DNA from: Candidatus Nomurabacteria bacterium
Lineage (GTDB): Bacteria > Patescibacteriota > Minisyncoccia > Phycocordibacterales > SBAW01
Direction of reading: 5' to 3'
DNA: 64,000 nucleotides
Assembly: GCA_943356415.1 (NCBI GenBank)
Contig: CALREW010000001.1
Span: forward strand, 223,900-287,899
This document shows, one piece after another, positions 5,221 to 57,089 of the stretch. A program made the position numbers and the translations under genes. Numbering within the stretch: position 1 is the stretch's first letter; each line of letters begins with the position of its first letter. The notes under the pieces are model-generated. The model ran no database searches and was not told the DNA's origin. It saw only the letters and a list, made by a program, of their open reading frames with translations.

Positions 5221-5886
5221 GTGAGACAGGTCGCACCATGGATCAGGCGTTCCCTCTGGCGTGCGTTTGCTATTGCAGTAGGGCTTATTTCTATAGTCTC
5301 GTGCATCATCTATGCCACCGCCCCTGAGTTCGTGCACACACTGGAAAATCAGGTACGAACCTACTTTTTAAACGAGGCGCCTGTTCCCTGTCTTGGGTTG
5401 GATAAGCGACCACGTTCAATATGCTGGAACAAAGAAATACACTCGGCACTTAAAAAGAGCGTCATTGCGGCCTTTAACGGCATCACAAGCTCGCTTATCC
5501 AAGTGCCAATTCTCATCGGCCTCTGGAAGTTCAAGCGACTTCTGTGGTGGGAAAAGACGCTGTTTTTCGTCTTCCCATTTATGCCGGCAATCATGTGGTT
5601 CTCCCCGCCCGAAGCAAAGGACAACCTGTTTTTGGCCCTTACTCTCATCACGTTGGTACCGGCCTGCAGGCAGCCCTATGAGATGTGGAGGGCGGGTACG
5701 AGAGGAGCGGTCGAGATTAAGTTCTTCGGCACCCAGTTGATCAATTGCGCCGTCTGGATGGCGTTCGCTTTTTCCATCGGAACATGGGTCGTTATCTTGT
5801 GCCAGTCGCTTATGACGCTCACGGTCATCGCCACCGTCGCGCTGTGGTGCTGGTACCGCGCCAAAGAACCTAACCCGCCGAAGTAG
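5221..5886 (+). CDS. hypothetical integral membrane protein
   Basis: Five to six predicted TM helices; no motif. Confidence 0.4.
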   Translation: MRQVAPWIRRSLWRAFAIAVGLISIVSCIIYATAPEFVHTLENQVRTYFLNEAPVPCLGLDKRPRSICWNKEIHSALKKSVIAAFNGITSSLIQVPILIGLWKFKRLLWWEKTLFFVFPFMPAIMWFSPPEAKDNLFLALTLITLVPACRQPYEMWRAGTRGAVEIKFFGTQLINCAVWMAFAFSIGTWVVILCQSLMTLTVIATVALWCWYRAKEPNPPK

Positions 5887-5978
5887 CTCACGCCACTTAC
5901 GGCTAACGCCTAACGGCTCATCGCCGCACTGAAGGTCGCCAATCCGGCCATCCACTGGTGCGGCGATCTTCTTTACCA

Positions 5979-6488
5979 CTACGACACGAGTTTCTCGACG
6001 ATATATTTGAAGTGTCTTTCCGATACCGGCATAACGGAGAGTCGCGAACCTTTTGCAAGAACCAACATACCGCCAAGTTCCCTTTCGGCTTTCAGCTCAA
6101 CAAGTGATACAGGGCGCTTAAACTTTTTTACAAACTGCACGTCCACACACATCCAGATAGGATTTTCTTTGGTCGACTTCGGATCATAGTGCTCGTCTTT
6201 CTTGTCCTGAGCCGTCAAATCAGCATGTGGCTTGCTTGCCACTTTTGCGATGCCATAAATACCTGGTTCTGCGACTGAGTGGTAGAAGAGGCAGAGGTCA
6301 CCTACTTTCATACCATCGCGTATAAAGTTGCGCGCTTGGTAGTTGCGTATCCCCGTCCACGGCACGCGTTTGTCACGCGCCAGGTCGTCTATCGAATACA
6401 TCGCTGCCTCAGTTTTGATAAGCCAGTAGTTCACGAAAGGAACTATAGCAGATGACTTACCTTGTCCTGGATACGAAAAAACCGCCAT
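5979..6488 (-). CDS. EVE (PUA-like) domain protein
   Basis: WLIKTE...YSIDDL...W.GIRNYQARNF.R.MKVGDL.LFYHS...GIYGIAKV...VDVQFVKKF.RPVSL.ELKA...VLAKGSRLSVMPV is the EVE-domain signature. Confidence 0.75.
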   Translation of the reverse strand: MAVFSYPGQGKSSAIVPFVNYWLIKTEAAMYSIDDLARDKRVPWTGIRNYQARNFIRDGMKVGDLCLFYHSVAEPGIYGIAKVASKPHADLTAQDKKDEHYDPKSTKENPIWMCVDVQFVKKFKRPVSLVELKAERELGGMLVLAKGSRLSVMPVSERHFKYIVEKLVS

Positions 6489-6523
6489 GAGGCGGCTCTT
6501 CGTTCTTCACTACCTAAACGGAC

Positions 6524-6778
6524 TTAGCTAAGGTGCTTGGAGACCAACTTGGTCATCTCAAACATGTTGACCTCTGCCTTTCCACCGAAGACAACCTTGA
6601 GCTTGTCGTCAGCCTTGATATTGCGCTTGTTCTTCGGGTCCTGAAGATCATGCTTCTTGATATATGCCCAAAGTGCCTTCACCACCTCCGAGCGAGGCAT
6701 CGGGCCCTTACCTACAACTGCCTCGAGCTCTTCGCTGAGCTTCATAGGCTTCATGAACGCTGAGTTTGCTTGTGCCAC
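6524..6778 (-). CDS. SWIB/MDM2 domain protein
   Basis: LSEELEAVVGK..MPRSEVVKALWAYIKKHDLQDPKNKRNIKADDKLKVVFG matches the SWIB domain. GTG start at 6778; the internal ATG at 6754 is also possible. Confidence 0.75.
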   Translation of the reverse strand: MAQANSAFMKPMKLSEELEAVVGKGPMPRSEVVKALWAYIKKHDLQDPKNKRNIKADDKLKVVFGGKAEVNMFEMTKLVSKHLS

Positions 6779-6882
6779 GAAAATATGACTTAGCTGTTAT
6801 TACGCCCTGTGCCCTCTAGTATATACGAGGGAGAAAATACGCAATAGGGCTATCCCGTTCACGGGAATAAAACTTAACTTAC

Positions 6883-6912
6883 TTGACAAGTAACTAAAAA
6901 TATAGTAAAAAC
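6883..6912 (+). promoter_or_regulatory. putative promoter for 6943..7374
   Basis: TTGACA followed by an AT-rich -10 region, then GAGGAG 8 nt before the ATG. Confidence 0.35.
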
Positions 6913-6942
6913 AGTTTTGGAGAAAAGATTGAGGAGAAGTCG

Positions 6943-7374
6943 ATGGCGCAAGCCACAGAGCCGAGATATCAGCTGCAGAGCGTCATGAGCTACGAAAATG
7001 CGCTCACGGTGGTTGACCGCCTTGCCGACGGCCTCGGCAAGGCGATTGACGAGAAGATCCGGCCGCTCGTCGCGGTCATGATCATGTGCGACATCGAGAC
7101 ACGGATGTCGTGCGAGGGGCATGCGACGCGCAGCCGACCGCACCCCTGGGTCACCGTGTCGCTCGGCCAAGAGGCGAAGCTCAACTGCCTGCTCGGCTGG
7201 CAGAATCGCCCGGGACCGGCGAACAACCCCAACCACAACCAGTGGGTGCTCGAGAGCCATCCACACGGATGGTGCGTCACCCCCCGGAACCTAGACCAGC
7301 CCCTCGACGTGCTCCAGCGCTACGCGCTCGAGTTCGCCGAACGAATCCAGTTGATGCTCAACATCTCGAGGTAA
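6943..7374 (+). CDS. hypothetical protein (143 aa, G+C-rich)
   Basis: Clean ORF with SD and a downstream hairpin plus T-tract. Cys/His-containing; no recognised family. Confidence 0.45.
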   Translation: MAQATEPRYQLQSVMSYENALTVVDRLADGLGKAIDEKIRPLVAVMIMCDIETRMSCEGHATRSRPHPWVTVSLGQEAKLNCLLGWQNRPGPANNPNHNQWVLESHPHGWCVTPRNLDQPLDVLQRYALEFAERIQLMLNISR

Positions 7375-7391
7375 GAAATCCTCGAGCCGAA

Positions 7392-7428
7392 CCCGTCCGC
7401 AGACTATCGCGGGCGGGTTTTGCATTTC
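7392..7428 (+). terminator. intrinsic terminator overlapping the last codons of the convergent SET gene
   Basis: cccgtccgc...gcgggcggg then ttttgcatttc. The right arm lies inside the SET C-terminal codons. Confidence 0.45.
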
Positions 7429-7880
7429 AGACACCGGCACCCTTTTGGCTTGATATGTTCGTTCCAATATTCCTTGCCGTAGTCGTACGTGAGCTCTTCG
7501 CCTTCCTTGATGTTGCGTCGCGCCATGATAAACACACGATGCTTGCGCACTTCAATCTCGCAGTTGGGGCGACACGAGTGATTGATGTACCCTGCTTTGT
7601 TTATCTTTGGCCGTCCATCGATAGTTACCTTCGAATTAACTTCGAAAAGATAGAGGCTATTGCTTGTATATTCTTCCGCCTGCGAAATAAAACGGCCGAC
7701 ATACTCAATGACACACGAACCCTTAGGTATTTCACTAAACGTATAGAGACCCAAGCCTGCACTTGAGCGCTTAACTTTCAAATCAAAGTTCCCGGGATCA
7801 AATTTTAACTTTCTTTTCTTGGGTTTCGTTTTCATAGCAGAAATTAAATGGGCGCGTCGTGTACGCGCCATATCTATCAA
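7404..7880 (-). CDS. SET-domain protein-lysine methyltransferase-like
   Basis: GLGLYTFSEIPKGSCVIEYVG..., NHSCRPNCEI, ELTYDYG.EYW and a C-terminal C.C..C post-SET cluster. ORF opens with TTG at 7880; the ATG at 7871 is the likely start. Confidence 0.7.
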   Translation of the reverse strand: MIDMARTRRAHLISAMKTKPKKRKLKFDPGNFDLKVKRSSAGLGLYTFSEIPKGSCVIEYVGRFISQAEEYTSNSLYLFEVNSKVTIDGRPKINKAGYINHSCRPNCEIEVRKHRVFIMARRNIKEGEELTYDYGKEYWNEHIKPKGCRCLKCKTRPR

Positions 7881-8008
7881 TGCACGTCTGCGAGTATACC
7901 AGAGCTTTTTTGGTTTGTAGATTTATTTCTGATTTTTAGTACGCTAGCTGCGGCGTTTATGTAAGCGGCCGCGGCTTCCCAGCGGTAAATGACAGACATG
8001 GAGCCATC

Positions 8009-8671
8009 ATGGCCCCGAGCACATCGCAGCAGTCTCCCCGGCGAATCATCGCTTCAGTGAGCGACAAGGGAGGCCTCGGCTTCCTCAAGCGCTTCACCGA
8101 CACTGGTGGCTGGCAGGTCATCTCCACCGGCGGCACGTTGAAGCAGCTCAAGGAGCTCGATGTCCCCTGCACCGACGTCGAAGAGATGACCGGCATGCCG
8201 GAGATGATGGGAGGGCGGGTGAAGACTCTCCATCCCATCATCCATGGTTCGGTGCTGGCACGCCCGAGCACCAACGACATGGACCAGCTCCGGATGTACG
8301 TCAACGGCCTCGGTCTTCCGGTGGCAGACGTCGTCCCCATCGAGCTGGTCGTCGTGAACTTCTACCCGTTCCGCGCAACGGTCGAGCTGTTCAAGGAAGA
8401 CAAGGTGAGCGACGCCGACGTTGTCGAGCAGATCGACATCGGAGGGCCCGCATTGGTGCGCGCCGCCGCTAAGGCGTGCAATGCCGACGGTGGACCGCTG
8501 GTGGTCGTGGACCCGAGGGACTACGAGTGGGTGGCAGACGCGCTGCTCTCCGGCACCATCCCACCCGAGTTGCGCAGGCAGCTCATGTACAAGGCCTACG
8601 CGGCGACGGCCGACTACGACATGGCCATCGCTGCCTGGACGATCACCCGTCTCGGCGGCAGCGCTCACTGA
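8009..8671 (+). CDS. stand-alone IMP cyclohydrolase (MGS-like, PurH N-terminal) domain protein
   Basis: IASVSDKGGL..., VISTGGT, GRVKTLHP.IHG, VVVNFYPF and IDIGGP.LVRAAAK match the PurH N-terminal domain. The ORF stops after about 220 aa with no AICAR transformylase domain. G+C-rich. Confidence 0.55.
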   Translation: MAPSTSQQSPRRIIASVSDKGGLGFLKRFTDTGGWQVISTGGTLKQLKELDVPCTDVEEMTGMPEMMGGRVKTLHPIIHGSVLARPSTNDMDQLRMYVNGLGLPVADVVPIELVVVNFYPFRATVELFKEDKVSDADVVEQIDIGGPALVRAAAKACNADGGPLVVVDPRDYEWVADALLSGTIPPELRRQLMYKAYAATADYDMAIAAWTITRLGGSAH

Positions 8672-8694
8672 CACGGTCGAAGAGGCAATGGAAC

Positions 8695-8732
8695 GGGCCG
8701 CCCGACATACTGTGGCGGCCCGTTCTCTTTTC
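8695..8732 (+). terminator. intrinsic terminator
   Basis: gggccgcc-loop-ggcggccc followed by gttctcttttc. Confidence 0.55.
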
Positions 8733-8831
8733 TAAATAAAATTGAAGTACTGAAACGAAAACCCCCCCGCCCGTGCGCTTGCGCGCTAGGCGAGGGGTTT
8801 CCCGTTTACGCGGTCGGGACCGCTTCCTACT

Positions 8832-9221
8832 TCAGGCTTCGCCGGCGATGCGATCGAGCGTGCCGAGCGCGGTGACCGTGGTGCGATCGCCCTTGCAGTC
8901 GCAGGCCAGCTCATGGACGTCGCCCTCGGTGAGGTGCGCCGCATCCATCGTGTCGCCGATCGTGTTCGGCACATCCTTGACGGCGCCCAACGCGTGCGCG
9001 GCCATCGCGACCGACTCGAGCGCCGAGCCACGCACCGGAAGAGCACGCAGTTCATCGAGCTCCAGCGTCTCGCCGAGGCTGATGGACTTCAGCTTGCTGA
9101 ACCCCGGGAACTTGATCCGGATGGCAGCGGCAGCCGCAGCGGCGATTTCCTGCTTCGTGACTTCCTTCGGGATGAAGCTGGTAGCGCCGGCCAGCGGCCG
9201 GGTAGCGAGTTTGGTCGTCAT
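8832..9221 (-). CDS. hypothetical protein (130 aa, G+C-rich)
   Basis: ATG 6 nt after AGGAGA. The longer ORF (to 9437) runs into AT-rich DNA and is less likely. No family recognised. Confidence 0.4.
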   Translation of the reverse strand: MTTKLATRPLAGATSFIPKEVTKQEIAAAAAAAIRIKFPGFSKLKSISLGETLELDELRALPVRGSALESVAMAAHALGAVKDVPNTIGDTMDAAHLTEGDVHELACDCKGDRTTVTALGTLDRIAGEA

Positions 9222-9372
9222 GACGGGTCTCCTCGAGTTGGTCAGGATAGGGGGAATCCCCACCTGCCATAGACGACTGGGCGCACTTTCGAACGTGTAC
9301 TCGCCCAATCCACTATTAATGCTAGCACCGACTATTTTACAGGCAAGCCTTAGCCTGTGCTGAACACACACC

Positions 9373-10005
9373 TTGCGGCATACTACGTTTGTGAACGAAT
9401 TCACAAAAAGAGAACTCGCCACTCTCAAACGTCTCAATACCCCTGCAAAAATCCAGGATTACCTCAACGCACTTGCCTTTAATTTTGAAAAGCGCGGAGA
9501 CACGCTGATGTCGCCGCGAAAAGTTCTCGAAAAGAAAGCGGCACATTGTTTTGAAGGGGCACTCTTTGCAGCAGCAACATTGTGGGTGAACGGCCACAAA
9601 CCACTACTCCTCGACCTTGTTCCTGATATGAAAAAAGATGATGCACATGTTGTTACTCTCTATAAAGTAAACGGGTATTGGGGGGCGATCTCAAAAACCA
9701 ACCACGCAGTACTTCGTTTCCGTGACCCCATCTACAAAACAGTGCGCGAACTCGCCCTCTCCTACTTTCACGAATACTTCCTCAATACCACGGGCGAGAA
9801 AACGTTGAAGACTTTTGCTGGTCCCATCGACATGAGTCGCTTTGGAACAGCATGGCTCACCGATGAGGACGATTTGATGTATCTGCACAAGAAATTCGAC
9901 CGTCTCCCCCACACCTCATTTGTGCCGACAAAAAATAAAAAACTGCTGCGTAAAGCCGACAATGTTGAACGTAAGGCTGGTTTAATTGTGGAACAAAAAA
10001 GATAG
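9373..10005 (+). CDS. hypothetical protein with a possible transglutaminase-like Cys/His/Asp core
   Basis: AHCFEGALFAAATL then DDAHVVTLY...GYWGAI resembles the papain/transglutaminase-like fold. TTG start; weak call. Confidence 0.4.
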   Translation: MRHTTFVNEFTKRELATLKRLNTPAKIQDYLNALAFNFEKRGDTLMSPRKVLEKKAAHCFEGALFAAATLWVNGHKPLLLDLVPDMKKDDAHVVTLYKVNGYWGAISKTNHAVLRFRDPIYKTVRELALSYFHEYFLNTTGEKTLKTFAGPIDMSRFGTAWLTDEDDLMYLHKKFDRLPHTSFVPTKNKKLLRKADNVERKAGLIVEQKR

Positions 10006-10127: not shown

Positions 10128-11438
10128 ATGGCAAAGAGAAGATCGTACCGAGTCCTTGTCGTCGGAGGTGACGGCAGGGCGCACGCGCTTTACAAGGCGT
10201 GCGAAATGAGTCCGCTTGCAGGCGAAGTGCTCTGCACTCCTGGCAATGGTGGTATCCGTACCATGAAGCGCCGCGATGTCGGTGTCATGGACTTCGTCGG
10301 ACTCGTCGCGCTGTGCGCGAACGAAGCCATCGACATCGTGGTCGTGAGTCCCGAAGCACCGCTGTGCGGTGACGGCACGATGGGCATCGTCGACTACTTC
10401 AAGGAACATGCACCCGGCGTGATGGTCTTTGGGCCAAGTGCTGGCGCGGCGCGGCTCGAAGGCTCGAAGCGCTTCTGCAAGCAACTGTGCGTCGAGAACC
10501 TCATTCTCACGGCACGCTACGACGAAGTGACCGCGACCGAACAGATCGAGCGAGTTCTCGCGACCCACGGCGTTCCCACCGTCGTCAAGGAAGACGGGCT
10601 CGCCGGCGGCAAAGGCGTTACGGTCGCTATGACGGTCGAAGATGCTCGTGCCGCCGCCATTCGCGGCATTGTGAAGGGGCCGGTCATCATGGAAGACGTG
10701 GTCACTGGTCGCGAAGTGTCGTTCATCTGCCTCAGCGACGGCAAGGACGTTCTCCCGCTGCGACCGGCGCGCGACTATAAACGCGCGTTCGACAACGACA
10801 AGGGTCCGAACACCGGCGGCATGGGTTGCTACAGCCCACTGCCGGAGTACCCGGAAGACGGCCCGGTCTATGCGCAACTGCTCACCATGGCAAATGCCGT
10901 TGCCGATGGCATCGCAGTGGAAGACTTCCCCTTCGTGGGACTTCTCTACGTCGGCGCTATGGTGGACCGCGAAGGCACGCCCTGGCTTCTCGAGGTCAAT
11001 TGCCGCGGCGGCGACCCCGAGACCGAAGTATTGCTCAATGGCTTTAAGGGCGACTTCTTCGAGTACATCGTCGCGTGCTGCGAAGGCACACTCGCGGATA
11101 TGCCGACGCCGCAGTTTGCGGGGGCGTCAGCCTGCGTTGTAGTTGCTTCGGAGGGTTACCCCGAGAAGCCTGCGCCGCACGGCCTCATCTCGCAAGACTG
11201 GCTCGCCCACATGGCGGCTCGCGGCGTCGAGGTGTTCCACGCGGGCACGACCGAAATCGCCGAAGGCGTGAAGCCTACTGGGGGCCGCGTGTTGGTGCTC
11301 TGCGCCAACGCCGCAACACACGAAGAGGCGCGTCACAAGATCTACGACGCCCTCAACTCGATACCACACCCCTTCCCAGGGGCATGGTGGCGCACCGACA
11401 TAGCCAAAGGTGCCGCACAACTCGCGCTCGACTTGTAG
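10128..11438 (+). CDS. purD: phosphoribosylamine--glycine ligase
   Basis: RVLVVGGDGRAHAL N-terminus, ATP-grasp core, length 436 aa. G+C-rich. Confidence 0.85.
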   Translation: MAKRRSYRVLVVGGDGRAHALYKACEMSPLAGEVLCTPGNGGIRTMKRRDVGVMDFVGLVALCANEAIDIVVVSPEAPLCGDGTMGIVDYFKEHAPGVMVFGPSAGAARLEGSKRFCKQLCVENLILTARYDEVTATEQIERVLATHGVPTVVKEDGLAGGKGVTVAMTVEDARAAAIRGIVKGPVIMEDVVTGREVSFICLSDGKDVLPLRPARDYKRAFDNDKGPNTGGMGCYSPLPEYPEDGPVYAQLLTMANAVADGIAVEDFPFVGLLYVGAMVDREGTPWLLEVNCRGGDPETEVLLNGFKGDFFEYIVACCEGTLADMPTPQFAGASACVVVASEGYPEKPAPHGLISQDWLAHMAARGVEVFHAGTTEIAEGVKPTGGRVLVLCANAATHEEARHKIYDALNSIPHPFPGAWWRTDIAKGAAQLALDL

Positions 11439-20272: not shown

Positions 20273-21691
20273 CTAGACCTCGCCGCGGGCGATCGCGGGG
20301 GCGATGCCGATGTAATTGAGCGGCGTGATGCGCATGATTTCCGCCTTCACGCCGTCGTTAACGTCGAGCGTGGCCACGAAGGACCGGAGGTCGTCGAGGC
20401 TCACCGCCTTCCCACGCGCCACATCCTTGAGGATGTTGTAGGCACCGCCGACGCCTTCGCGCCGGAGGATGACCTGGATCGCCTCGGTGATGACCTCGGG
20501 GTGTTCCCAGAGCGCCTTGGCCATGGCCTCAGCATTCGGGGACGACTTACCGAGACCACGCATGACCGCCTTGTAGGCGATCAGGCTCCAGCCGAACGCG
20601 ATGCCGAAGTTGCGCATCACAGTGGAGTCCGAGAGATCGCGCTGGAGGCGCGACTTGGTGAGCTTGCGGGCGAAGAGTTCAAACAGCGCGTTCGCGAGCT
20701 CGAGGTTGCCTTCCCCATTCTCCCAGTCGATCGGGTTGACCTTGTGGGGCATGGCAGACGATCCCGACTCACTCGCCACAGCGCGCTGCGTGATCCAGCC
20801 GTCGCTGATGTAGCGCCACGTATCCTGCGCCAGATCTTCGACGATGTTGTTGATGCGGATCATCACCTGGAACAGCTCGGCATAGCTGTCGTGCGGTTCG
20901 ATCTGCGTGGTGTAGTGGTTTGCCACGATAACCGGATCGCTCGACGTGAAGCGGCTGAGCGTCGCGATGAAGCTCGATGCAAACTTCGGCCAGTCCACGT
21001 TCGGAAACGCAACGAACTCTGCGTTGTGGTTGCCAGTGGCACCGGAGAACTTGGCGTCTATGGTAACCCGGTACAGCTTGTTGAGCTCCCGTTCGAGGCG
21101 TTCCTTGAACACGCGCATTTCCTTGCCGAACGTCGTTGGCGACGCCGACTGACCGTGCGTGCGTGCGAGCATCGGAAGCTCCGCATGCTCGACCGAGAGT
21201 TTCTCGAGCGTGTCGTTTAGCTCGAAGAGCTGCGGCAGAATGACCTTCGAGATGGCATCGCACAGCATGAGCGCGTACGCGCAGCTGTTGATGTCCTCGG
21301 AGGTACGGCCGAAGTGTAGCCACGGCAACAGGTCCGCCATCGAGGTCTGCCGCAGCTTCATCTGAAGCCAGAGCTCGACGGACTGCACGTCGTGGTTTGT
21401 GGGGCCGAGCTTCATCTCGCCGTCCACATAGCCTTTGCGTTCGATTTGCTGAATGACGATGGCGTCGTCGAGCGAGAAATCGGCCACGAGCTTGTCGAGG
21501 AATTCCGCCTCGCTTTCGGTGAGCGGACGCACCGGCACCCCGGGGAAATCCGCGAGATGCTCGATGAACGCGACCTTGACGGTCACGCGATACCGCACGA
21601 GCGCGCCTTCGCTCATGCGCTGCGCTAGAGCTGCGACCGCCTTTGCATAGCGCCCGTCAACCGACGAGAGCCTCTCCAGTGGATGTGCCAT
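20273..21691 (-). CDS. purB: adenylosuccinate lyase
   Basis: SPVDGRY N-terminus, HFG.TSEDIN and THGQ.A.PTT.GKE signature; 472 aa. G+C-rich, with its own terminator. Confidence 0.85.
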   Translation of the reverse strand: MAHPLERLSSVDGRYAKAVAALAQRMSEGALVRYRVTVKVAFIEHLADFPGVPVRPLTESEAEFLDKLVADFSLDDAIVIQQIERKGYVDGEMKLGPTNHDVQSVELWLQMKLRQTSMADLLPWLHFGRTSEDINSCAYALMLCDAISKVILPQLFELNDTLEKLSVEHAELPMLARTHGQSASPTTFGKEMRVFKERLERELNKLYRVTIDAKFSGATGNHNAEFVAFPNVDWPKFASSFIATLSRFTSSDPVIVANHYTTQIEPHDSYAELFQVMIRINNIVEDLAQDTWRYISDGWITQRAVASESGSSAMPHKVNPIDWENGEGNLELANALFELFARKLTKSRLQRDLSDSTVMRNFGIAFGWSLIAYKAVMRGLGKSSPNAEAMAKALWEHPEVITEAIQVILRREGVGGAYNILKDVARGKAVSLDDLRSFVATLDVNDGVKAEIMRITPLNYIGIAPAIARGEV

Positions 21692-22026: not shown

Positions 22027-22641
22027 ATGAGCAAGCGTATCAACCGCGTGGTTTTCAAAGACCACCCGAAGTCGAAAGTATTTCTCTCGCCTATCGAGAT
22101 GGGCGACGTCGATCGCTACTACGCGTGGACCAACGACCACGACGTAACTCGCTTCCTGATGATCCGCTTCCCCACCACACGCAAGCAGGAAGAGACCTGG
22201 TGTGCGGGGTCAGCGGCCAGTGCCCAACTGGAGAACATCGTGTTGGCGATTATCGAGAAGAAAGGGGGCACACACATCGGAAGCATCGGGTTGCATCGCA
22301 TCAGTTGGGGCAACCGTTCGGCAACAACGGGTGCGATGATCGGCGACAAACGCTTCTGGGGTGCAGGCTACGGCAGCCACGCCAAAGTGCTCCTGTTGAA
22401 GTACGCCTTCGACGAACTCGGGCTGCACTCCATTGAGTCCCGGGTAGCCGCCTTCAATGGCCGGAGCGCTGCCTACAACAAGAAGTGCGGCTACCTCGAA
22501 GTTGGTCGCATGCCGGAGCGGACATTCCGCGACGGAAAATTCCACGACGAAATCGTCATGGAGACACGGCCCACATTGTTCCGTCCTATCTGGAAGAGTT
22601 TCGAGGCCGGCACGTTCGGACCCTCGAAGCGCAAGAAATAG
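22027..22641 (+). CDS. GNAT N-acetyltransferase (RimJ/RimL-like)
   Basis: Acetyl-CoA-binding fold (IGSIGLHRI...R/Q..G.G.G..A). G+C-rich. Confidence 0.65.
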   Translation: MSKRINRVVFKDHPKSKVFLSPIEMGDVDRYYAWTNDHDVTRFLMIRFPTTRKQEETWCAGSAASAQLENIVLAIIEKKGGTHIGSIGLHRISWGNRSATTGAMIGDKRFWGAGYGSHAKVLLLKYAFDELGLHSIESRVAAFNGRSAAYNKKCGYLEVGRMPERTFRDGKFHDEIVMETRPTLFRPIWKSFEAGTFGPSKRKK

Positions 22642-22762
22642 CTTCGTACGAAAATGATGGACGCCCCCGCGACTGCGGGGGCGTTTTCATTTGAACTAAC
22701 CCTACTAAAAAGTCTGAGGGCCCGGCGGTGAAGCCGGGCCCTCGAACCTCTCGAGTCTAAGA

Positions 22763-23839
22763 CTAGCTGTGCAGCGGGACTGGCACCAGCTCGTTGTGGA
22801 GAACCTCCGGCGATCGGCCGCCACGGCCCGGGCGGATCATGGTGAGGCGGACCGCAAGCAGCTGAGGGCCCTCCGCCCTCCACGCTTCAACGATCCTCAA
22901 CGCCCGCTTGATGGCGTTGTCGATCGCTTCCTTCTCCGTCATGATCTTGCTCGTCCACTCGCCTTCGGAGCCAGGCCAGTTGAACGTGTACGTCGCGCCG
23001 TTGATCGAATCAGCGCGGAGCGACGTCATCTTCCACGGATGAGCGCCGATCTCGCAGAGCCGCCCTTCAAGTTCACGAGCAGGCTGCGCGAACGTCCGCA
23101 TAGCCCACTCGGTGTATTTCGAAACCAACTCCCATTCCAGCACGCGCTCACCTTCGATACCAACGGCGTTGACGATGCGTGCGACGCCAGCGAGGGCATC
23201 GTGCCGCACCGCCAAGTCTTTGGCGAACGCGACTGTTGCCGTATCGCAGACGTCGTTGTGAACATCTGCCTTTGAGAGCTCAACCATCGCGAGCATCATC
23301 CGAGCGCGGCGTGATGGATCCGCACGGAAGTTATTGTCGCGGATGAGCCGCGAGATGAGCTCGTGATGGACCACTTGGTCGGCGCACTTAGCCGCTTCCA
23401 CCAGAAAACGGCAGAGCTCGTCGGCTTCGGCCTCGTCTTCACTCTCCGCCCACCGACGCACGACGAGCGTGAGCAGCTTTTCGCGTGTTTTCAAATGGGG
23501 CGACTTGTTGTCCGAAGGCAGGAGCGTGTAGATCTCCATGATCTCCTTGAGCTGCTCCACCCTAACGGCGACCATCATCTGTTCCGCCGGCTGACGCGCC
23601 TTACGACCAGCTTCGCGGTTCTTCTCGTAGATCGCAGCCAGCAAGTAGCCAACGTGCCCCGAAATGATCCCGTCGACTTTCTTGTCCTCCGCGTCAGAGA
23701 CGTCTTGCGCGGCCAGCCCGAGGACGATCTCGCGGAGCCGCACGACACGCTCCTCGTGCGAGAGCTCCTTGAGCGCCAGCCACGTTACGCCATCAAGTGG
23801 GTTGAAGATTTCGTCCAACCGCTTCAGGTGGTCCTTCAT
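22763..23839 (-). CDS. hypothetical protein (358 aa, G+C-rich)
   Basis: ATG 7 nt after GGAGA. Predicted mostly helical N-terminal part and a mixed C-terminal part. No family recognised. Confidence 0.45.
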   Translation of the reverse strand: MKDHLKRLDEIFNPLDGVTWLALKELSHEERVVRLREIVLGLAAQDVSDAEDKKVDGIISGHVGYLLAAIYEKNREAGRKARQPAEQMMVAVRVEQLKEIMEIYTLLPSDNKSPHLKTREKLLTLVVRRWAESEDEAEADELCRFLVEAAKCADQVVHHELISRLIRDNNFRADPSRRARMMLAMVELSKADVHNDVCDTATVAFAKDLAVRHDALAGVARIVNAVGIEGERVLEWELVSKYTEWAMRTFAQPARELEGRLCEIGAHPWKMTSLRADSINGATYTFNWPGSEGEWTSKIMTEKEAIDNAIKRALRIVEAWRAEGPQLLAVRLTMIRPGRGGRSPEVLHNELVPVPLHS

Positions 23840-24057
23840 TTCACGTCTCCTCTGTGACCGTAGCCACGGTAGCCTTATCCCCGTAGGGCAAGGTGGCAGT
23901 GGGGCATATCCCTTCTGCCAACGAAAGCACAAGCGCTTCCGGCAACACTGTACAACGCTAGTTTAACTTCGTCAAAACATATTTTTATCCTGACCATTCC
24001 ATACCTCTCTGGTATAGTCGACTTCGGAAAGGCGCTCATATAGAGCGGACGGGAAAC

Positions 24058-25155
24058 ATGGGCAAGGCCATTGGCATCCTCGGCGGTGGCCAGCTTGGCC
24101 GCATGACCGCCGCGGCCGCTGCGAAGCTCGGCGTCAAGACGGTCGTCTACTGCAAGAGCGAGGAGGAATGCGGGACGTTCATCGCGTGGAAGAAAATCAT
24201 CGCGGACTATGACAACGAGAAGGCGCTCCTCGAGTTCGCAAGCCTCGTCGACGTCATCACCTGCGAATGGGAAAGCGTCGACAAGCGCACGCTCGAGTTT
24301 CTCGAGCGTCTCGGACGCAAGCCCGTGAACCCAAGCTCGCTTGTCTTCGCTACGGCGCAAGACCGGCTGCTCGAGAAGAGGGCTGCCCAAGCGGTGGGTA
24401 TGGAGACGGCGAAATTCTGGGCGTTTCAAACCCCCCAGGAGCTCCATGACGCTGGCTTCTTTGTCGGCTTCCCCGCCATCATGAAGACCCGCTTCGGCGG
24501 CTACGACGGCAAGGGACAGCGGCGTGTGAAAAGCGTCGAAGAAGCCCGACGCGCATGGGAAGAACTCGGGCACGTCCCCTGCATCCTCGAAGCATTCGTC
24601 AACTTCAAGCACGAGGCGTCCATCATGGTCTACCGCAACAGTCGCGGCAAGACCGGCTGCTTCCCCATGGTGGTCAACACGCATGAGAACGGCATCCTCC
24701 GACAGACATTGTTCCACCAAGAAGCGTTCGGTGGAGCACCGTTCTGGACGAAGCATGAACAAGGGCCGAAGCGGCTCGCCGAGCAACTGAAACTCGTTGG
24801 TCTCACCTGTGTGGAGCTTTTCTTCACACAAGACGAGAAGTTCATTTTCAACGAGATGGCTCCGCGGCCGCACAACAGCTACCACTGGACAATCGAAGGC
24901 TGCAACGTCAGCCAGTTCGAGCAGCTGGTCCGCATCCTCGCAGATCTGCCGCTCGTCGAGCCGTACAGTCCGTTTCGTTCGGTCACTATGACCAACCTAC
25001 TCGGACACGAAGCTGACAAGAGCGTGCCAGCGCTTCTGAGCCTGCCTAAAGTTTCGGTGACGCTGTACGACAAGCCTCACCGAGATCCAAAGCCCGGTGA
25101 ACCGCCTCGCAAACGCGGGCACTGGGTCGCCGTCGAGCCGTATCATCGTCACTGA
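24058..25155 (+). CDS. purK: N5-carboxyaminoimidazole ribonucleotide synthase
   Basis: IGILGGGQLGRM N-terminus and ATP-grasp core; 365 aa. G+C-rich. Confidence 0.75.
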   Translation: MGKAIGILGGGQLGRMTAAAAAKLGVKTVVYCKSEEECGTFIAWKKIIADYDNEKALLEFASLVDVITCEWESVDKRTLEFLERLGRKPVNPSSLVFATAQDRLLEKRAAQAVGMETAKFWAFQTPQELHDAGFFVGFPAIMKTRFGGYDGKGQRRVKSVEEARRAWEELGHVPCILEAFVNFKHEASIMVYRNSRGKTGCFPMVVNTHENGILRQTLFHQEAFGGAPFWTKHEQGPKRLAEQLKLVGLTCVELFFTQDEKFIFNEMAPRPHNSYHWTIEGCNVSQFEQLVRILADLPLVEPYSPFRSVTMTNLLGHEADKSVPALLSLPKVSVTLYDKPHRDPKPGEPPRKRGHWVAVEPYHRH

Positions 25156-31073: not shown

Positions 31074-32108
31074 ATGGCCATACAGAGAAATGCCCCGCCC
31101 GTAGACGTCAACCAACGCCGCATCATGGGCGGTACTGAAGCCGACGTCATCCAGCTGTATCCCATGAAGCACAAGTTCGCTTGGGAGTACTACAACACCG
31201 CCAACGCCAACCACTGGCTTCCGACCGAAATCTCCATGCAGCTCGATATCGAGCAATGGAAATCCCCGACCGCGCTTTCTGCTGACGAAAGGCGGGCGTT
31301 CGAGACCGTGCTCGGTTTCTTCACCACCGCAGACTCCATCGCCGCAAACAACATCGTGATGGGTTTCTACAAGCACGTCTCCTCGCCTGAGGTGCGCATG
31401 TACTTGCTGCGCCAGGCATACGAAGAGGCCATCCACACACACGCGTACCAATACATCGTTGAATCGCTCGGTCTCAACCAGGCCAAGATCTTCAACATGT
31501 ACCGCGAGATTGACTCCATCTACAACAAAGAGGAGTTTATCCTCGGCTTCAACGAAGGTATCTTCGACGGCGACTTCAAGATGGACACGTTCGAGAATAA
31601 ACAAAAGTTCCTTGAGAACTGGTGTGTATTCTCACTTATCCTCGAAGGTATCTTCTTCTATTCGTCCTTTGCGGTAATGCTCGGCTTCCAGCGCCAACAC
31701 AAACTGACTGGCTCTGCAGAGCAGATTCAATACATCATGCGCGACGAGTCGATGCACCTAAACTTCGGCGTTGAAGTCATCAACACCATCAAGGAAGAAA
31801 ATCCGGAACTTTGGACCAATGACTTCGCTCGCAAAATTATCGAGCTCGTTAAGAAGGCCGTGGTGCTTGAATATACGTTCGCTAAAGAAGTCTTCCCGAC
31901 CGGCATCTTCGGTATGAACGCCGATGGCTTCAAGCAGTACATCGAGTACATCGCCGACCGCCGCTTGCAGCGCGTAGGCCTCACACCGCAATACAACGTC
32001 CAAAACCCATTCCCCTGGATGTCTGAAGCGATTGACCTATCCAAGGAGAAGAACTTCTTCGAAACCAGGGTCATCGAATATCAGGTCGGTGGTCAACTAA
32101 ACTGGTAA
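31074..32108 (+). CDS. nrdB: ribonucleoside-diphosphate reductase beta subunit
   Basis: E..H iron ligands (EEAIHTHAYQYI, DESMHLNFG) and the radical-site Tyr context. Confidence 0.85.
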   Translation: MAIQRNAPPVDVNQRRIMGGTEADVIQLYPMKHKFAWEYYNTANANHWLPTEISMQLDIEQWKSPTALSADERRAFETVLGFFTTADSIAANNIVMGFYKHVSSPEVRMYLLRQAYEEAIHTHAYQYIVESLGLNQAKIFNMYREIDSIYNKEEFILGFNEGIFDGDFKMDTFENKQKFLENWCVFSLILEGIFFYSSFAVMLGFQRQHKLTGSAEQIQYIMRDESMHLNFGVEVINTIKEENPELWTNDFARKIIELVKKAVVLEYTFAKEVFPTGIFGMNADGFKQYIEYIADRRLQRVGLTPQYNVQNPFPWMSEAIDLSKEKNFFETRVIEYQVGGQLNW

Positions 32109-39723: not shown

Positions 39724-39828
39724 ACCCTTGCAGTATAGCCTTATTTGACAATATATATTTTAGTATGTATAGTTAGCTCGAATGTTAGGTGCGGCGTCCT
39801 GCCTCACCCCTTCAAAGAGAGACGATCG

Positions 39829-40521
39829 ATGCCGAAAAGAATGACCATCCTGGTCATGGTTGCCGTGGCGCTGATTGCTGCGCTGGCAACCTTCCTTCTG
39901 TTGGGACCCCGAACTGATGTGTTCGCCCAGAACACTACAGGCAAGGCCCAGGCGACCACTCCGTTCGTGCGGCACATCGCCAATCCGCCGACCTTCACGT
40001 ATGCCGGGAAGGTGAAAGTCCCCGCCCAGGCGAAGTTTCACCTCAACGCGGACTTCTGGGCCAAGCGATTCTCCCGCGGGTTCAAAATGGCCGTGTCGAT
40101 CGAAGATAACCTCCGGGTCAGCAATAACCGGATGGAATACTTCTACGATTTGGTGGAACTGCCCACACCCGCCGCCACGCTGAAGGTTAGCTACGTCAGC
40201 GGCCGCACGCACGACGAAGACCTCAGAGGTCAGTTCAAGGTCAAGCCCGTCACGCTGGGACAGTTCTTCTATCTGCACACCCTGCAGCCCAATGGCGAGA
40301 AGGGGCTGCTGCGGACCCAGCACGACAAGGACTGCCGATTCTTCGAGGACATCGCGTGCGTGAACATCGTTCACTACACTCTCGCCGACGGGACGGTCGC
40401 CATGTTCCGCTCGCTTTGGATGCGCGGCGAGGGTGGCTGGAGCTTCACCTTCGGCGGCCTGTGCGACCAGTATCGCAACAGTGGATGCGACCGGCATGGT
40501 TCTGCCGTGGTCCACCCCTGA
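39829..40521 (+). CDS. secreted hypothetical protein (230 aa, G+C-rich)
   Basis: ATG with an upstream purine-rich SD; N-terminal signal peptide; four Cys in the C-terminal region. The ORF opens at 39745 in AT-rich DNA. No family recognised. Confidence 0.45.
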   Translation: MPKRMTILVMVAVALIAALATFLLLGPRTDVFAQNTTGKAQATTPFVRHIANPPTFTYAGKVKVPAQAKFHLNADFWAKRFSRGFKMAVSIEDNLRVSNNRMEYFYDLVELPTPAATLKVSYVSGRTHDEDLRGQFKVKPVTLGQFFYLHTLQPNGEKGLLRTQHDKDCRFFEDIACVNIVHYTLADGTVAMFRSLWMRGEGGWSFTFGGLCDQYRNSGCDRHGSAVVHP

Positions 40522-50605: not shown

Positions 50606-50950
50606 GGTTTGCGTTTAGCGGTGGGTAAGGGGCACCAAATAAGCGCACTTTTATAAACAGAAAAAGGAAGTCGGAGAACGCATAAGTCCTCCACTTCGTG
50701 GGTGTTCGCGAACCGCTATAAGAGTGGCAAAGCGCCACAGATGTCTTTTGAAACCTAGCTGGTTGCCCTCCCGCAACTCATCCGCGCTCCCTGTAGGTTT
50801 ACCCCATTGTACTCACGCTAACCTCACTGTCAAATGGCTGTCCACAGACCTCATTTTCTTCTCTCCAATTATTGACTTTTGAATAAAAAATTGTATTATT
50901 ACTTCAGGAGGTCAGTAGGCGGTAACCATATAAGACCGCTGAAATAAAAG

Positions 50951-51166
50951 ATGGGCGTCTCAAATGAGCCCGGCATCGACCGGGGCGAACTGGGCAGCGG
51001 AACCATCGTTCCGACCTGGCCGTCGCGCAAGTATCGGCGTTTCAACGATCCGCTCAACTGGCGGTTTATCTTCACCATCGGGATCGGCATCGTCGGCATC
51101 GGCGTCGCCACGGGCTGGTTCTTCTTCTCCCTGGTGACGCTGGGTCGCTTCAAGAAGAAGTCGTAA
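50951..51166 (+). CDS. small membrane protein (71 aa, G+C-rich), hypothetical
   Basis: One TM helix and a Lys-rich C-terminus; the SD is distant (about 36 nt). Weak. Confidence 0.3.
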   Translation: MGVSNEPGIDRGELGSGTIVPTWPSRKYRRFNDPLNWRFIFTIGIGIVGIGVATGWFFFSLVTLGRFKKKS

Positions 51167-51218
51167 GACTTCAGCGTTCGCGCAGATGCGCGGCCTTCAC
51201 AGGCCGCGCATTGCTCGT

Positions 51219-51869
51219 TTATACCCCGCCACTGCGTCTCCGCGCACGCCAAGCATCTATCTCTTTGTGATTGCCCGAAAGTAATACTTTTGGAACGCGA
51301 TGCTTCTTTCCTTTATGCACAAAAACTTCTGGTCTGGTGTACACATCGTGGGACGCCACTCGACTCTCTTCTATTGATTCAAATTTTCCCAGTACACCGG
51401 GAATATGGCGCGCCGTAGCATCGATGATTGCAAGCGCCGGTACTTCCCCGCCAGTGAGCACGTAGGGACCCACTGAAACTTCTTCCGCTTTTAATATCTT
51501 CGTTGCGCGCGCGTCGATGCCTTCATAGCGACCGCAAACGATAATCACTTGGTCAAACTTCTTTACGAGCGTCTTTGCGTACGCATTGGTGAGAAGTTTT
51601 CCTCCAGCAGACGTCATAATGACTTTCGTCTTTGCGCCTTTCTTCTTTGCCTTTTCCACTGCGCGAACAATAGATTCCGCTTCAAGCACCATGCCAGGAC
51701 CTCCGCCGTAGGGACGAAAGTCCACTTGGCTCCATTTGTGCTTCGAGGAGTCGCGCATCTGATGTGCTTTTACCTTAACGAGCTTGGCCTTCTGTGCGCG
51801 ACCAAGAATCGACGCATTGGTATACGCCTCAATCGTCTCGGGAAAAAGAGTTATGACGTCGAATCTCAT
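51219..51869 (-). CDS. trmD: tRNA (guanine37-N1)-methyltransferase
   Basis: MRFDVITLFPE N-terminus and SPOUT-knot motifs. Confidence 0.8.
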   Translation of the reverse strand: MRFDVITLFPETIEAYTNASILGRAQKAKLVKVKAHQMRDSSKHKWSQVDFRPYGGGPGMVLEAESIVRAVEKAKKKGAKTKVIMTSAGGKLLTNAYAKTLVKKFDQVIIVCGRYEGIDARATKILKAEEVSVGPYVLTGGEVPALAIIDATARHIPGVLGKFESIEESRVASHDVYTRPEVFVHKGKKHRVPKVLLSGNHKEIDAWRARRRSGGV

Positions 51870-56627: not shown

Positions 56628-56891
56628 CTAGTTCTTGGTGTTCTCGCCGCCGAGGTCCTCGATCGCAATGAGGACGCGCGAGGGGATCTCGTTGAGATCC
56701 TTGGGTCCGAGGGTCTCGGTGCCTGGGCTAGCCTCAGTGCCGCTGCTGAGCCAGCGCTTCAGGCTCCAGCTGCCATCCGGCTTGACCGTGCCGCGGTAGC
56801 TATAGTCGTTGACCGTAATGGCCACAGTCGTCCCACCGACGACTGGTGCGGCGGCCGCAGTGGCCAATCCGCTTGGTGATGCCTGTGTCAT
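56628..56891 (-). CDS. hypothetical protein (88 aa, G+C-rich)
   Basis: ATG 6 nt after AGGAAA; shares a bidirectional terminator with rnr. Confidence 0.35.
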   Translation of the reverse strand: MTQASPSGLATAAAAPVVGGTTVAITVNDYSYRGTVKPDGSWSLKRWLSSGTEASPGTETLGPKDLNEIPSRVLIAIEDLGGENTKN

Positions 56892-57089
56892 TTTCCTGAA
56901 TACTCCCCGTGGGAACTGCCGCGACCAGATGCGCGGTATTGTCATAGAACACCCGGGACGCAACGCTCGTCAAGACACTATTTGCGACACCTTCACCTTT
57001 TTGCTTTAGTTATCGTAGGTAGAGTAAGTTGCGTACGCGTCAAATGATTCAGTGAAAAGACCGGCCAAGGAGCCGGAAGGAGGTGACGC

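Follow-up and report, generated by a model that had tools for sequence, protein, structure and literature searches.

SET, SWIB and EVE genes of a Candidatus Nomurabacteria genome: a recurrent SET-SWIB proximity and a clade-restricted EVE neighbour

Do three small genes that stand next to each other in a bacterial genome, and that encode domains familiar from eukaryotic chromatin, belong to one system? The question is raised by a stretch of 64,000 nucleotides from a Candidatus Nomurabacteria bacterium (GenBank assembly GCA_943356415.1, contig CALREW010000001.1, positions 223,900 to 287,899), hereafter the window, which encodes an EVE (PUA-like) domain protein, a stand-alone SWIB/MDM2 domain protein and a SET-domain protein-lysine methyltransferase. 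A sequence-only reading of the window had taken the three for a co-linear nucleoid-protein methylation and reader module. The comparisons described below favour another account, to which slightly more belief than doubt is attached: SET, SWIB and EVE would be three separately transcribed, vertically inherited and highly conserved small genes in a lineage-specific syntenic block, the intergenic spacers of which repeatedly took up unrelated genes rich in G+C at third codon positions (GC3). SET would be an active S-adenosylmethionine-dependent protein-lysine methyltransferase of the trithorax/MLL-like SET plus post-SET type, methylating lysines on a basic cellular protein; the likeliest substrate or partner would be the small lysine-rich SWIB protein, or a basic nucleoid-associated protein bound by it. 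EVE, which adjoins SWIB only in the clade of the window, would read a modified base of RNA or DNA independently of the other two.

Layout and conservation of the neighbourhood

The EVE, SWIB and SET genes lie side by side on the minus strand (Table 1). Their domain assignments and positions, as given by the sequence-only reading, proved right, with all three matches far above the Pfam cut-offs. Identical genes are present in independent assemblies (ENA ERZ27280315, Logan ERR5863123/4; L002, L084 and L173). Since these repeat the order SWIB, GC-rich open reading frame (ORF), SET and N-terminal half of PurH, the arrangement is not an assembly artefact.

Table 1. Features of the SET-SWIB-EVE locus, in positions of the window (aa, amino acids)
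Feature	Position	Strand	Remarks
EVE (PUA-like) domain protein	5979-6488	-	169 aa as listed; Pfam PF01878
Terminator-like hairpin 3' of SWIB	6473-6503	-	RNA fold and terminator scan
SWIB/MDM2 stand-alone domain protein	6524-6778	-	84 aa, GTG start; lysine-rich; Pfam PF02201
GC-rich ORF	6943-7374	+	143 aa; between SWIB and SET, opposite strand
Terminator hairpin of GC-rich ORF	7386-7423	+	RNA fold; SET stop codon in loop
SET-domain protein-lysine methyltransferase	7404-7871 (7404-7880 as listed ORF)	-	155 aa; Pfam PF00856
Sigma-70-like promoter candidate 5' of SET	7893-7921	-	TCTACA, 17-nt spacer, TATACT, extended -10 TG
CPR-C4 vasohibin-like cysteine protease homologue	9373-10005	+	PDB 7OB6/7PJO match

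The three genes are predicted to form separate transcription units and no operon, because a gene of the opposite strand and hairpins stand between them. The hairpin 3' of the SWIB stop codon looks like an intrinsic terminator: it has a GC stem (6482-6495), a U6 tract (6476-6481) and an A-tract on its 5' side, the surrounding minus strand (6470-6530) folds with -20.9 kcal/mol (z -3.1), and the same palindrome was recovered by the terminator scan. Between SWIB and SET lies the GC-rich ORF, placed there by the sequence-only reading as well, and the overlap of its terminator with the end of SET was also seen correctly, as the SET stop codon (TAG, 7404-7406, minus strand) sits in the loop. This second hairpin folds with -26.2 kcal/mol (z -4.3) on the plus strand and with -21.2 kcal/mol (z -2.1), without a U-tract, on the minus strand; the terminator may work in both directions. 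The promoter candidate 5' of SET is the sole promoter-like match in 5800-8100 and is a weak lead, because one match is no more than shuffled sequences give (1.2 on average). An operon reading of the trio, and with it the notion of the trio as one co-linear unit, was rejected: the plus-strand ORF with its own terminator splits SET from SWIB, and the U6 hairpin splits SWIB from EVE.

For the comparison with relatives, tblastn searches with the proteins of the window covered 80 loci centred on SET (flanks up to 10 kb), 60 of them species-level loci from Paceibacteria of the candidate phyla radiation (CPR) and 20 alphaproteobacterial. Further samples comprised 11 exact-protein contig look-ups and 80 EVE-centred metagenome loci from among the matches listed, mostly distant relatives (about 50% identity, probably from other phyla), among which only L090-L095 were informative. 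The proximity of SET and SWIB recurs well above chance, yet is far from universal: of the 60 CPR loci, 13 have SWIB within 10 kb of SET, and in 10 of these the distance is below 1 kb. For a genome of 0.5-1 Mb, the chance of one SWIB gene lying as near as 1 kb to SET is estimated at about 0.2-0.4%. EVE was found within 10 kb of SET in none of the 60 CPR loci and none of the 20 alphaproteobacterial loci; in the latter, neither SWIB nor CPR-C4 was found near SET either. Conversely, neither SET nor SWIB was detected within 10 kb of four EVE orthologues (64-73% identity) situated on long contigs.

Where SET and SWIB are close, they take one of three arrangements. They are convergent in seven loci (L008, L012, L013, L015, L022, L037 and L067), all of which are ordered CPR-C4 (reverse), SET (forward) and SWIB (reverse). 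In L029, L078 and L080, SWIB is found 36-119 bp upstream of SET on the same strand, with an operon-like look. The third arrangement, that of the window's clade, has SWIB downstream of SET on the same strand at a distance of 115-140 bp (L085, L087, L088 and L089).

These four contigs of one narrow clade are also the only ones on which SET, SWIB and EVE occur together, so that the conservation anticipated for the neighbourhood holds for the SET-SWIB pair in part of the loci and fails for the trio. SWIB and EVE, 35 bp apart in the window, are separated by about 0.7, 3.3, 5.5 and 0.7 kb in L085, L087, L088 and L089, respectively, with unrelated genes between. The order is SET-A, SET-B, SWIB, a 167-aa reverse gene and EVE in L085 (SET 86% identical to that of the window); SET-A, SET-B, SWIB, four genes (about 3.3 kb) and EVE in L087; CPR-C4 (reverse), SET, SWIB, five genes (5.5 kb) and EVE in L088; and SET-A, SET-B, SWIB, a 197-aa gene and EVE in L089. 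In L086, CPR-C4 (reverse), SET, a homologue of the GC-rich ORF (reverse, 57% identity) and SWIB are followed by the contig end. The link of EVE to its neighbours is confined to the one narrow clade and is loose.

Several observations weigh against the account given above. Two loci outside the clade point to a possible weak association of EVE with the block: L090 carries EVE, CPR-C4 (reverse) and SET, and in L092 a gap of 3.5 kb parts SWIB from EVE. As 47 of the 60 CPR loci have no SWIB gene within 10 kb of SET, the SET-SWIB link is not obligatory, and its commonest arrangement, the convergent one, excludes co-transcription. The 60 CPR loci are phylogenetically related and their counts are not independent. 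Furthermore, when the ORFs found within 4 kb of SET were clustered all against all, other recurrent neighbours emerged, namely a VanY-like peptidase in 16 loci, a 392-aa protein in 11 and a 256-aa membrane protein in 8, the last two provisionally glycosyl-hydrolase-like and UppP-like by sequence reading. With such genes also recurring near SET, some of the SET-SWIB signal may be due to gene order inherited in small genomes that rearrange slowly.

The three encoded proteins

The SET protein matches PF00856 with an E-value of 2.9e-22 (79.5 bits against a cut-off of 22.4), and its domain looks catalytically competent. In an alignment with 24 homologues (residue numbers refer to the 155-aa form), invariant positions comprise G39, G41 and L42 of the GLGLY motif (39-43), Y74, L75 and F76 of YLF (74-76), Y95, N97, H98 and C100 of YINHSC (95-100), and E125, E126, Y129 and Y131 of EELTYDY (125-131), while S99 and D130 are nearly invariant. 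The catalytic Tyr and NHS motifs, the disruption of which would have told against the sequence-only reading, are intact. The post-SET cysteine cluster reported earlier is there as well, as C145-x-C147-x2-C150, with C145 and C147 invariant and C150 kept in at least 90% of the homologues; its spacing is CxCxxC, compared with CxCx4C in eukaryotes. These three cysteines and C100 are the candidate ligands of a post-SET zinc cluster. By analogy with the well-studied MLL1 and DIM-5, the Tyr at the Phe/Tyr-switch position in ELTYDY (the first of YDY) would make the enzyme a mono- or di-methylase.

The start of the SET gene is ambiguous between ATG 7871 (155 aa) and ATG 7835 (143 aa), both chosen by gene callers. 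The longer form begins with MARTRRAHL, and its opening codons fold into a GC-rich hairpin (7851-7869), which may be part of the 5' untranslated region; most SET orthologues begin at a lysine-rich segment (MK.K.KKRK.KF). The N-terminal tail of the window protein is likewise lysine-rich (KTKPKKRKLKF).

Among solved structures, human KMT2D and KMT2C come closest with their SET plus post-SET domains (E-value 2.6e-18), and the alignment with them spans all SET motifs, including YLF, NHSC and LTYDY. Compared with these enzymes (PDB ID: 4Z4P and 5F6K), the window protein is alike over the whole catalytic core (GxG, YxF, NHSC, ELTYDY and post-SET Cys) at about 34% identity. It differs in that it stands alone as a minimal enzyme (143-155 aa), has a shorter SET-I insert and lacks WRAD-binding or other accessory regions, in bacteria that have no histone H3. 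An AlphaFold2 model (mean predicted local distance difference test score 80.6, predicted template modelling score 0.70) retrieved the SET domains of MLL3, MLL1, EHMT1 and G9a in a Foldseek search (probability 1.0, TM-score 0.55-0.69). The structural check suggested for all three proteins thus upholds the fold of SET; for SWIB and EVE the assignment comes from Pfam and from PDB sequence relatives.

Chlamydia cpnSET/NUE and Legionella RomA/LegAS4 are likewise small prokaryotic SET enzymes, and some enzymes of this kind methylate histone-like proteins of their own organism; Go1-SET of Methanosarcina reportedly acts on MC1-alpha. A sub-threshold match to the NCBIfam model of LegAS4 (33.6 bits against a cut-off of 550) is the only sequence link of the window protein to these enzymes. 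Unlike the bacterial effectors, the window protein has no ankyrin or effector modules, and it is part of a separate and very large family found in Paceibacteria and Alphaproteobacteria. In sequence, this family resembles MLL-type SET domains of eukaryotes more than it does the bacterial effectors that have been characterised.

SET was earlier considered rare in bacteria, as was SWIB, and known mainly from Chlamydiae. This does not apply to Paceibacteria: the protein database holds 3813 relatives of the window SET, the best 120 of them at 54-98% identity, and in a scan of species-representative genomes that returned at least 600 stretches, 586 among the 600 listed encode a SET relative. The relatives of SET and EVE with a named source are Paceibacterota, Parcubacteria, Adlerbacteria and Vogelbacteria, and their 64-76% identity argues for strong purifying selection and vertical inheritance. 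These relatives place the window in the Paceibacteria (Parcubacteria), a CPR lineage. About 20 of the listed SET stretches are alphaproteobacterial (Hyphomonadaceae, Methyloceanibacter and Caulobacterales; 53-67% identity), which implies a transfer between CPR and Alphaproteobacteria. Such loci include L024, L026, L030, L031, L034, L053, L056, L057, L059, L062, L063, L070, L073, L075 and L082, and a cultured Methyloceanibacter marginalis strain is among the carriers of an orthologue. Literature searches found no papers tying SET domains to Patescibacteria or CPR.

In close relatives, the SET orthologue is immediately preceded by another SET paralogue of highly diverged sequence (motifs NHSYEPN and ELTINY; L085 9521-9994, L087 724-1230 and L089 1-306), which is absent from the 64-kb window. 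Two SET domains are fused in one homologue, P0004 (264 aa).

The SWIB protein covers the whole PF02201 profile (positions 1-74 of 74; E-value 1.1e-32, 112.1 bits against a cut-off of 25), starting either at GTG 6778 or at ATG 6754 (76 aa, the choice of the gene callers). It is 73-87% identical to the SWIB proteins of other Paceibacteria. UAF30 (E-value 2e-16) and SMARCD1 are its relatives in the PDB, and in NCBIfam it matches only the SWIB modules found at the C-terminal ends of fusions with topoisomerase III and topoisomerase I. Chlamydia CT460, Waddlia Wcw_0377 and the TopA-SWIB proteins share the single SWIB/MDM2 domain of about 80 aa. Compared with the chlamydial and Waddlia proteins, the window SWIB comes from another phylum, its gene is near SET in some Paceibacteria, and its association with DNA is presumed by analogy. 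The Waddlia protein binds DNA genome-wide, as determined by chromatin immunoprecipitation, and SET enzymes co-occur with SWIB proteins in Chlamydiae; the same study, citing Aravind et al. 2011, reported SET-SWIB co-occurrence in bacteria (PMC6426960). SWIB is probably the best candidate for a substrate or partner of SET because it has stayed near SET through at least two rearrangements, is fused to topoisomerases I and III elsewhere, and in Waddlia is found on DNA genome-wide.

The EVE protein matches PF01878 almost over its full length (positions 1-144 of 145; E-value 1.6e-53, 181 bits). Its relatives in the PDB include 2AR1 (E-value 1.8e-39), 2EVE, 2G2X and human THYN1 (3EOP, E-value 4.8e-30). 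The true start is probably GTG 6434, giving a coding sequence at 5979-6434 for 151 aa with the N-terminus MNYWLIK, because 26 orthologues of 150-186 aa (mostly 151-155 aa) begin with MNYW; the listed ATG (6486-6488) falls within the loop of the terminator-like hairpin. The homologues number 7987, those of Paceibacteria being 151-152 aa long with a start at MNYW, and residues Y3, W4, W26, R30, N31, R35, Y51, H52 and W94 are invariant in 27 orthologues. PSPTO5229 (2EVE), PP5205 and THYN1 have the same single-domain architecture and length. The contexts described for proteobacterial EVE genes (a TsaD-GpsA-YciI-EVE operon, links to cell division and 6S RNA; PMC7641849) are absent at the window locus.

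EVE domains bind modified nucleobases, not methyl-lysine, and a survey of EVE gene contexts makes no mention of SET or SWIB (PMC7641849). Nothing was found to link EVE to protein lysine methylation. In other Paceibacteria, EVE orthologues adjoin genes of DNA-repair type (L171 9063-10462, L170 9626-10486 and the P0132 locus). At one locus, an 86-aa PF01035 (MGMT/ATL-like) gene overlaps in an operon-like run with EVE; at another, a YgjP/SprT-like gene lies 30 bp upstream; at a third, DNA_alkylation, PF01035 and DEAD helicase genes are close by. Because of such neighbours, there are hints that the EVE protein of CPR might read alkylated, damaged or otherwise modified DNA bases.

CPR-C4, GC-rich genes and intergenic spacers

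The product of the plus-strand gene beyond SET is a CPR-C4 orthologue (E-value 2.3e-52 with the structures of Table 1), in which the positions of the Cys, His and Leu triad align (AHCFEGA, DAHVV and HAVLR). CPR-C4 has a vasohibin-like fold and acts as a cysteine protease through a Cys-His-Leu triad; in its structural study the gene neighbours gave no clue to function (PMC9108980). It is the commonest neighbour of SET in relatives and is divergently transcribed, lying within 10 kb of SET in 24 of the 60 CPR loci and divergent within 300 bp in 17. This frequent divergent pairing appears to be unreported, and the short common intergenic region suggests a bidirectional promoter. The loci noted for CPR-C4 as a neighbour of SET are L005, L008, L011-L013, L015, L018, L019, L022, L028, L037, L046, L048, L054, L055, L060, L067 and L072.

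Directly adjacent in relatives, SET and CPR-C4 are parted in the window by a GC3-rich block of 1.4 kb (8009-9363, GC3 0.74-0.85). Encoded in the block are a stand-alone N-terminal half of PurH (IMP cyclohydrolase/MGS, 220 aa; PurH profile positions 4-195 of 510) and, on the minus strand, an orphan of 129 aa. The AICARFT half was not seen downstream; the purD gene (10128-11438) that follows is GC-rich too.

The GC-rich ORF between SWIB and SET has a G+C content of 60-66%, compared with about 47% for the backbone, and matches no Pfam or NCBIfam family. A promoter-like stretch containing TTGACA and a GAGGAG ribosome-binding site were read from the sequence upstream of it. It is not a recent insertion, because L086, the contig of which has about 60% G+C throughout, carries the homologue at the same position. 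A word-indexed search found only the window and L086 proteins, and an HMMER profile search 1183 distant relatives of about 125-145 aa; in those tested there was no informative Pfam domain, save for one fusion to HTH_17 (excisionase-type). The motif SCEGH is common to the two close members of the family. No tie between this ORF and SET or SWIB was found. Different, unrelated genes fill the SET/CPR-C4, SET/SWIB and SWIB/EVE spacers in different relatives.

GC3 is bimodal over the window, with most genes at 0.40-0.60 and a subset at 0.73-0.85 (e.g., 8009-8671, 10128-11438, 20273-21691, 22027-25155, 31074-32108, 39745-40521, 50899-51252 and 56628-56963). The GC-rich genes that were checked are less conserved: purD is 53% identical to its counterpart in L085, compared with 86% for SET. 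Possible causes are gene transfer, relaxed constraint under a GC-biased process, and recombination with GC-richer relatives. An assembly chimera behind the mosaic was ruled out, since the junctions are repeated in the independent assemblies. No tRNA genes or Rfam families were found in the window.

Competing explanations and significance

Synteny alone is a possible although doubtful explanation, in which SET, SWIB, EVE and CPR-C4 are unrelated housekeeping genes that stay near one another only because small CPR genomes preserve an ancestral order, and SET methylates, for example, a ribosomal protein or translation factor. Terminator or promoter contexts are separate for each gene, cell-wall-type genes also recur beside SET, the spacers are filled by unrelated genes, and these neighbours are missing from the 20 alphaproteobacterial SET loci, as SWIB is from the 47 CPR loci counted above. 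Such a reading is at odds with SET and SWIB staying within about 1 kb in three orientations, which points to rearrangements that kept their proximity, with the three operon-like loci that have both genes on one strand, and with the SET-SWIB co-occurrence in bacteria already in the literature (PMC6426960). The opposite extreme, a single module on the nucleoid with SET as writer, SWIB as scaffold and EVE as reader, is largely refuted by the neighbourhood data and is now highly improbable. The adjacency and common orientation of the three genes in the window, their presence on one contig in the four clade members, and the positions of EVE in L090 and L092 are in its favour; they are outweighed by the absence of EVE within 10 kb of SET in all 80 species-level loci, the four other Paceibacteria EVE genes with neither SET nor SWIB nearby, the varying SWIB-EVE distance (35 bp to 5.5 kb, filled by unrelated genes), the terminator-like hairpin in that gap, and the binding of modified nucleobases, not methyl-lysine, by EVE domains (PMC7641849). 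No mechanistic route from lysine methylation to EVE is seen.

A host-directed role, with SET and possibly SWIB exported to the chromatin of a eukaryotic host and the N-terminal PKKRK-type cluster serving as a nuclear localisation signal, is unlikely, and its probability is put lowest of all. It could draw on the relationship to eukaryotic MLL-type domains (about 34% identity), the basic cluster KPKKRKLK 5' of the SET domain, the weak sub-threshold NCBIfam match to Legionella AnkI/LegAS4, and the Waddlia SWIB protein, which reaches the host nucleus (PMC6426960). SET has neither a secretion signal nor an effector-type extra domain, and a near-universal family with 64-76% identity among the closest Paceibacteria relatives is typical of a core cellular function. 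Orthologues (53-67%) are found in Hyphomonadaceae, Caulobacterales and Methyloceanibacter, which are free-living groups, and the partners on which most Paceibacteria depend are presumably prokaryotic, which counts further against an effector. None of the three proteins stands out within its Pfam family, public annotation already names them accordingly, and the trio alone is not a new system.

A more speculative and rather improbable extension is that SET, CPR-C4 and SWIB constitute a loosely clustered protein-modification system with a nucleoid or cytoskeletal substrate, in which SET would be the writer, CPR-C4 the eraser or trimmer, and SWIB the scaffold or substrate. If true, it would be a prokaryotic counterpart of the eukaryotic 'code'-type modification of protein tails and would provide the first functional context for the orphan protease CPR-C4.

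The retention of SET, SWIB, EVE and CPR-C4 at 65-85% identity in the tiny CPR genomes indicates that these genes are probably important. 'Eukaryote-like' chromatin domains are mainstream in Paceibacteria and no curiosity of Chlamydiae, with close SET orthologues in several Alphaproteobacteria, which offer a culturable host for the study of the SET family. The recurrent position of SET beside SWIB and CPR-C4 gives concrete candidates: SET might methylate SWIB or HU-like proteins, and it might share a target with CPR-C4. Such candidates matter for a lineage that is mostly unculturable.

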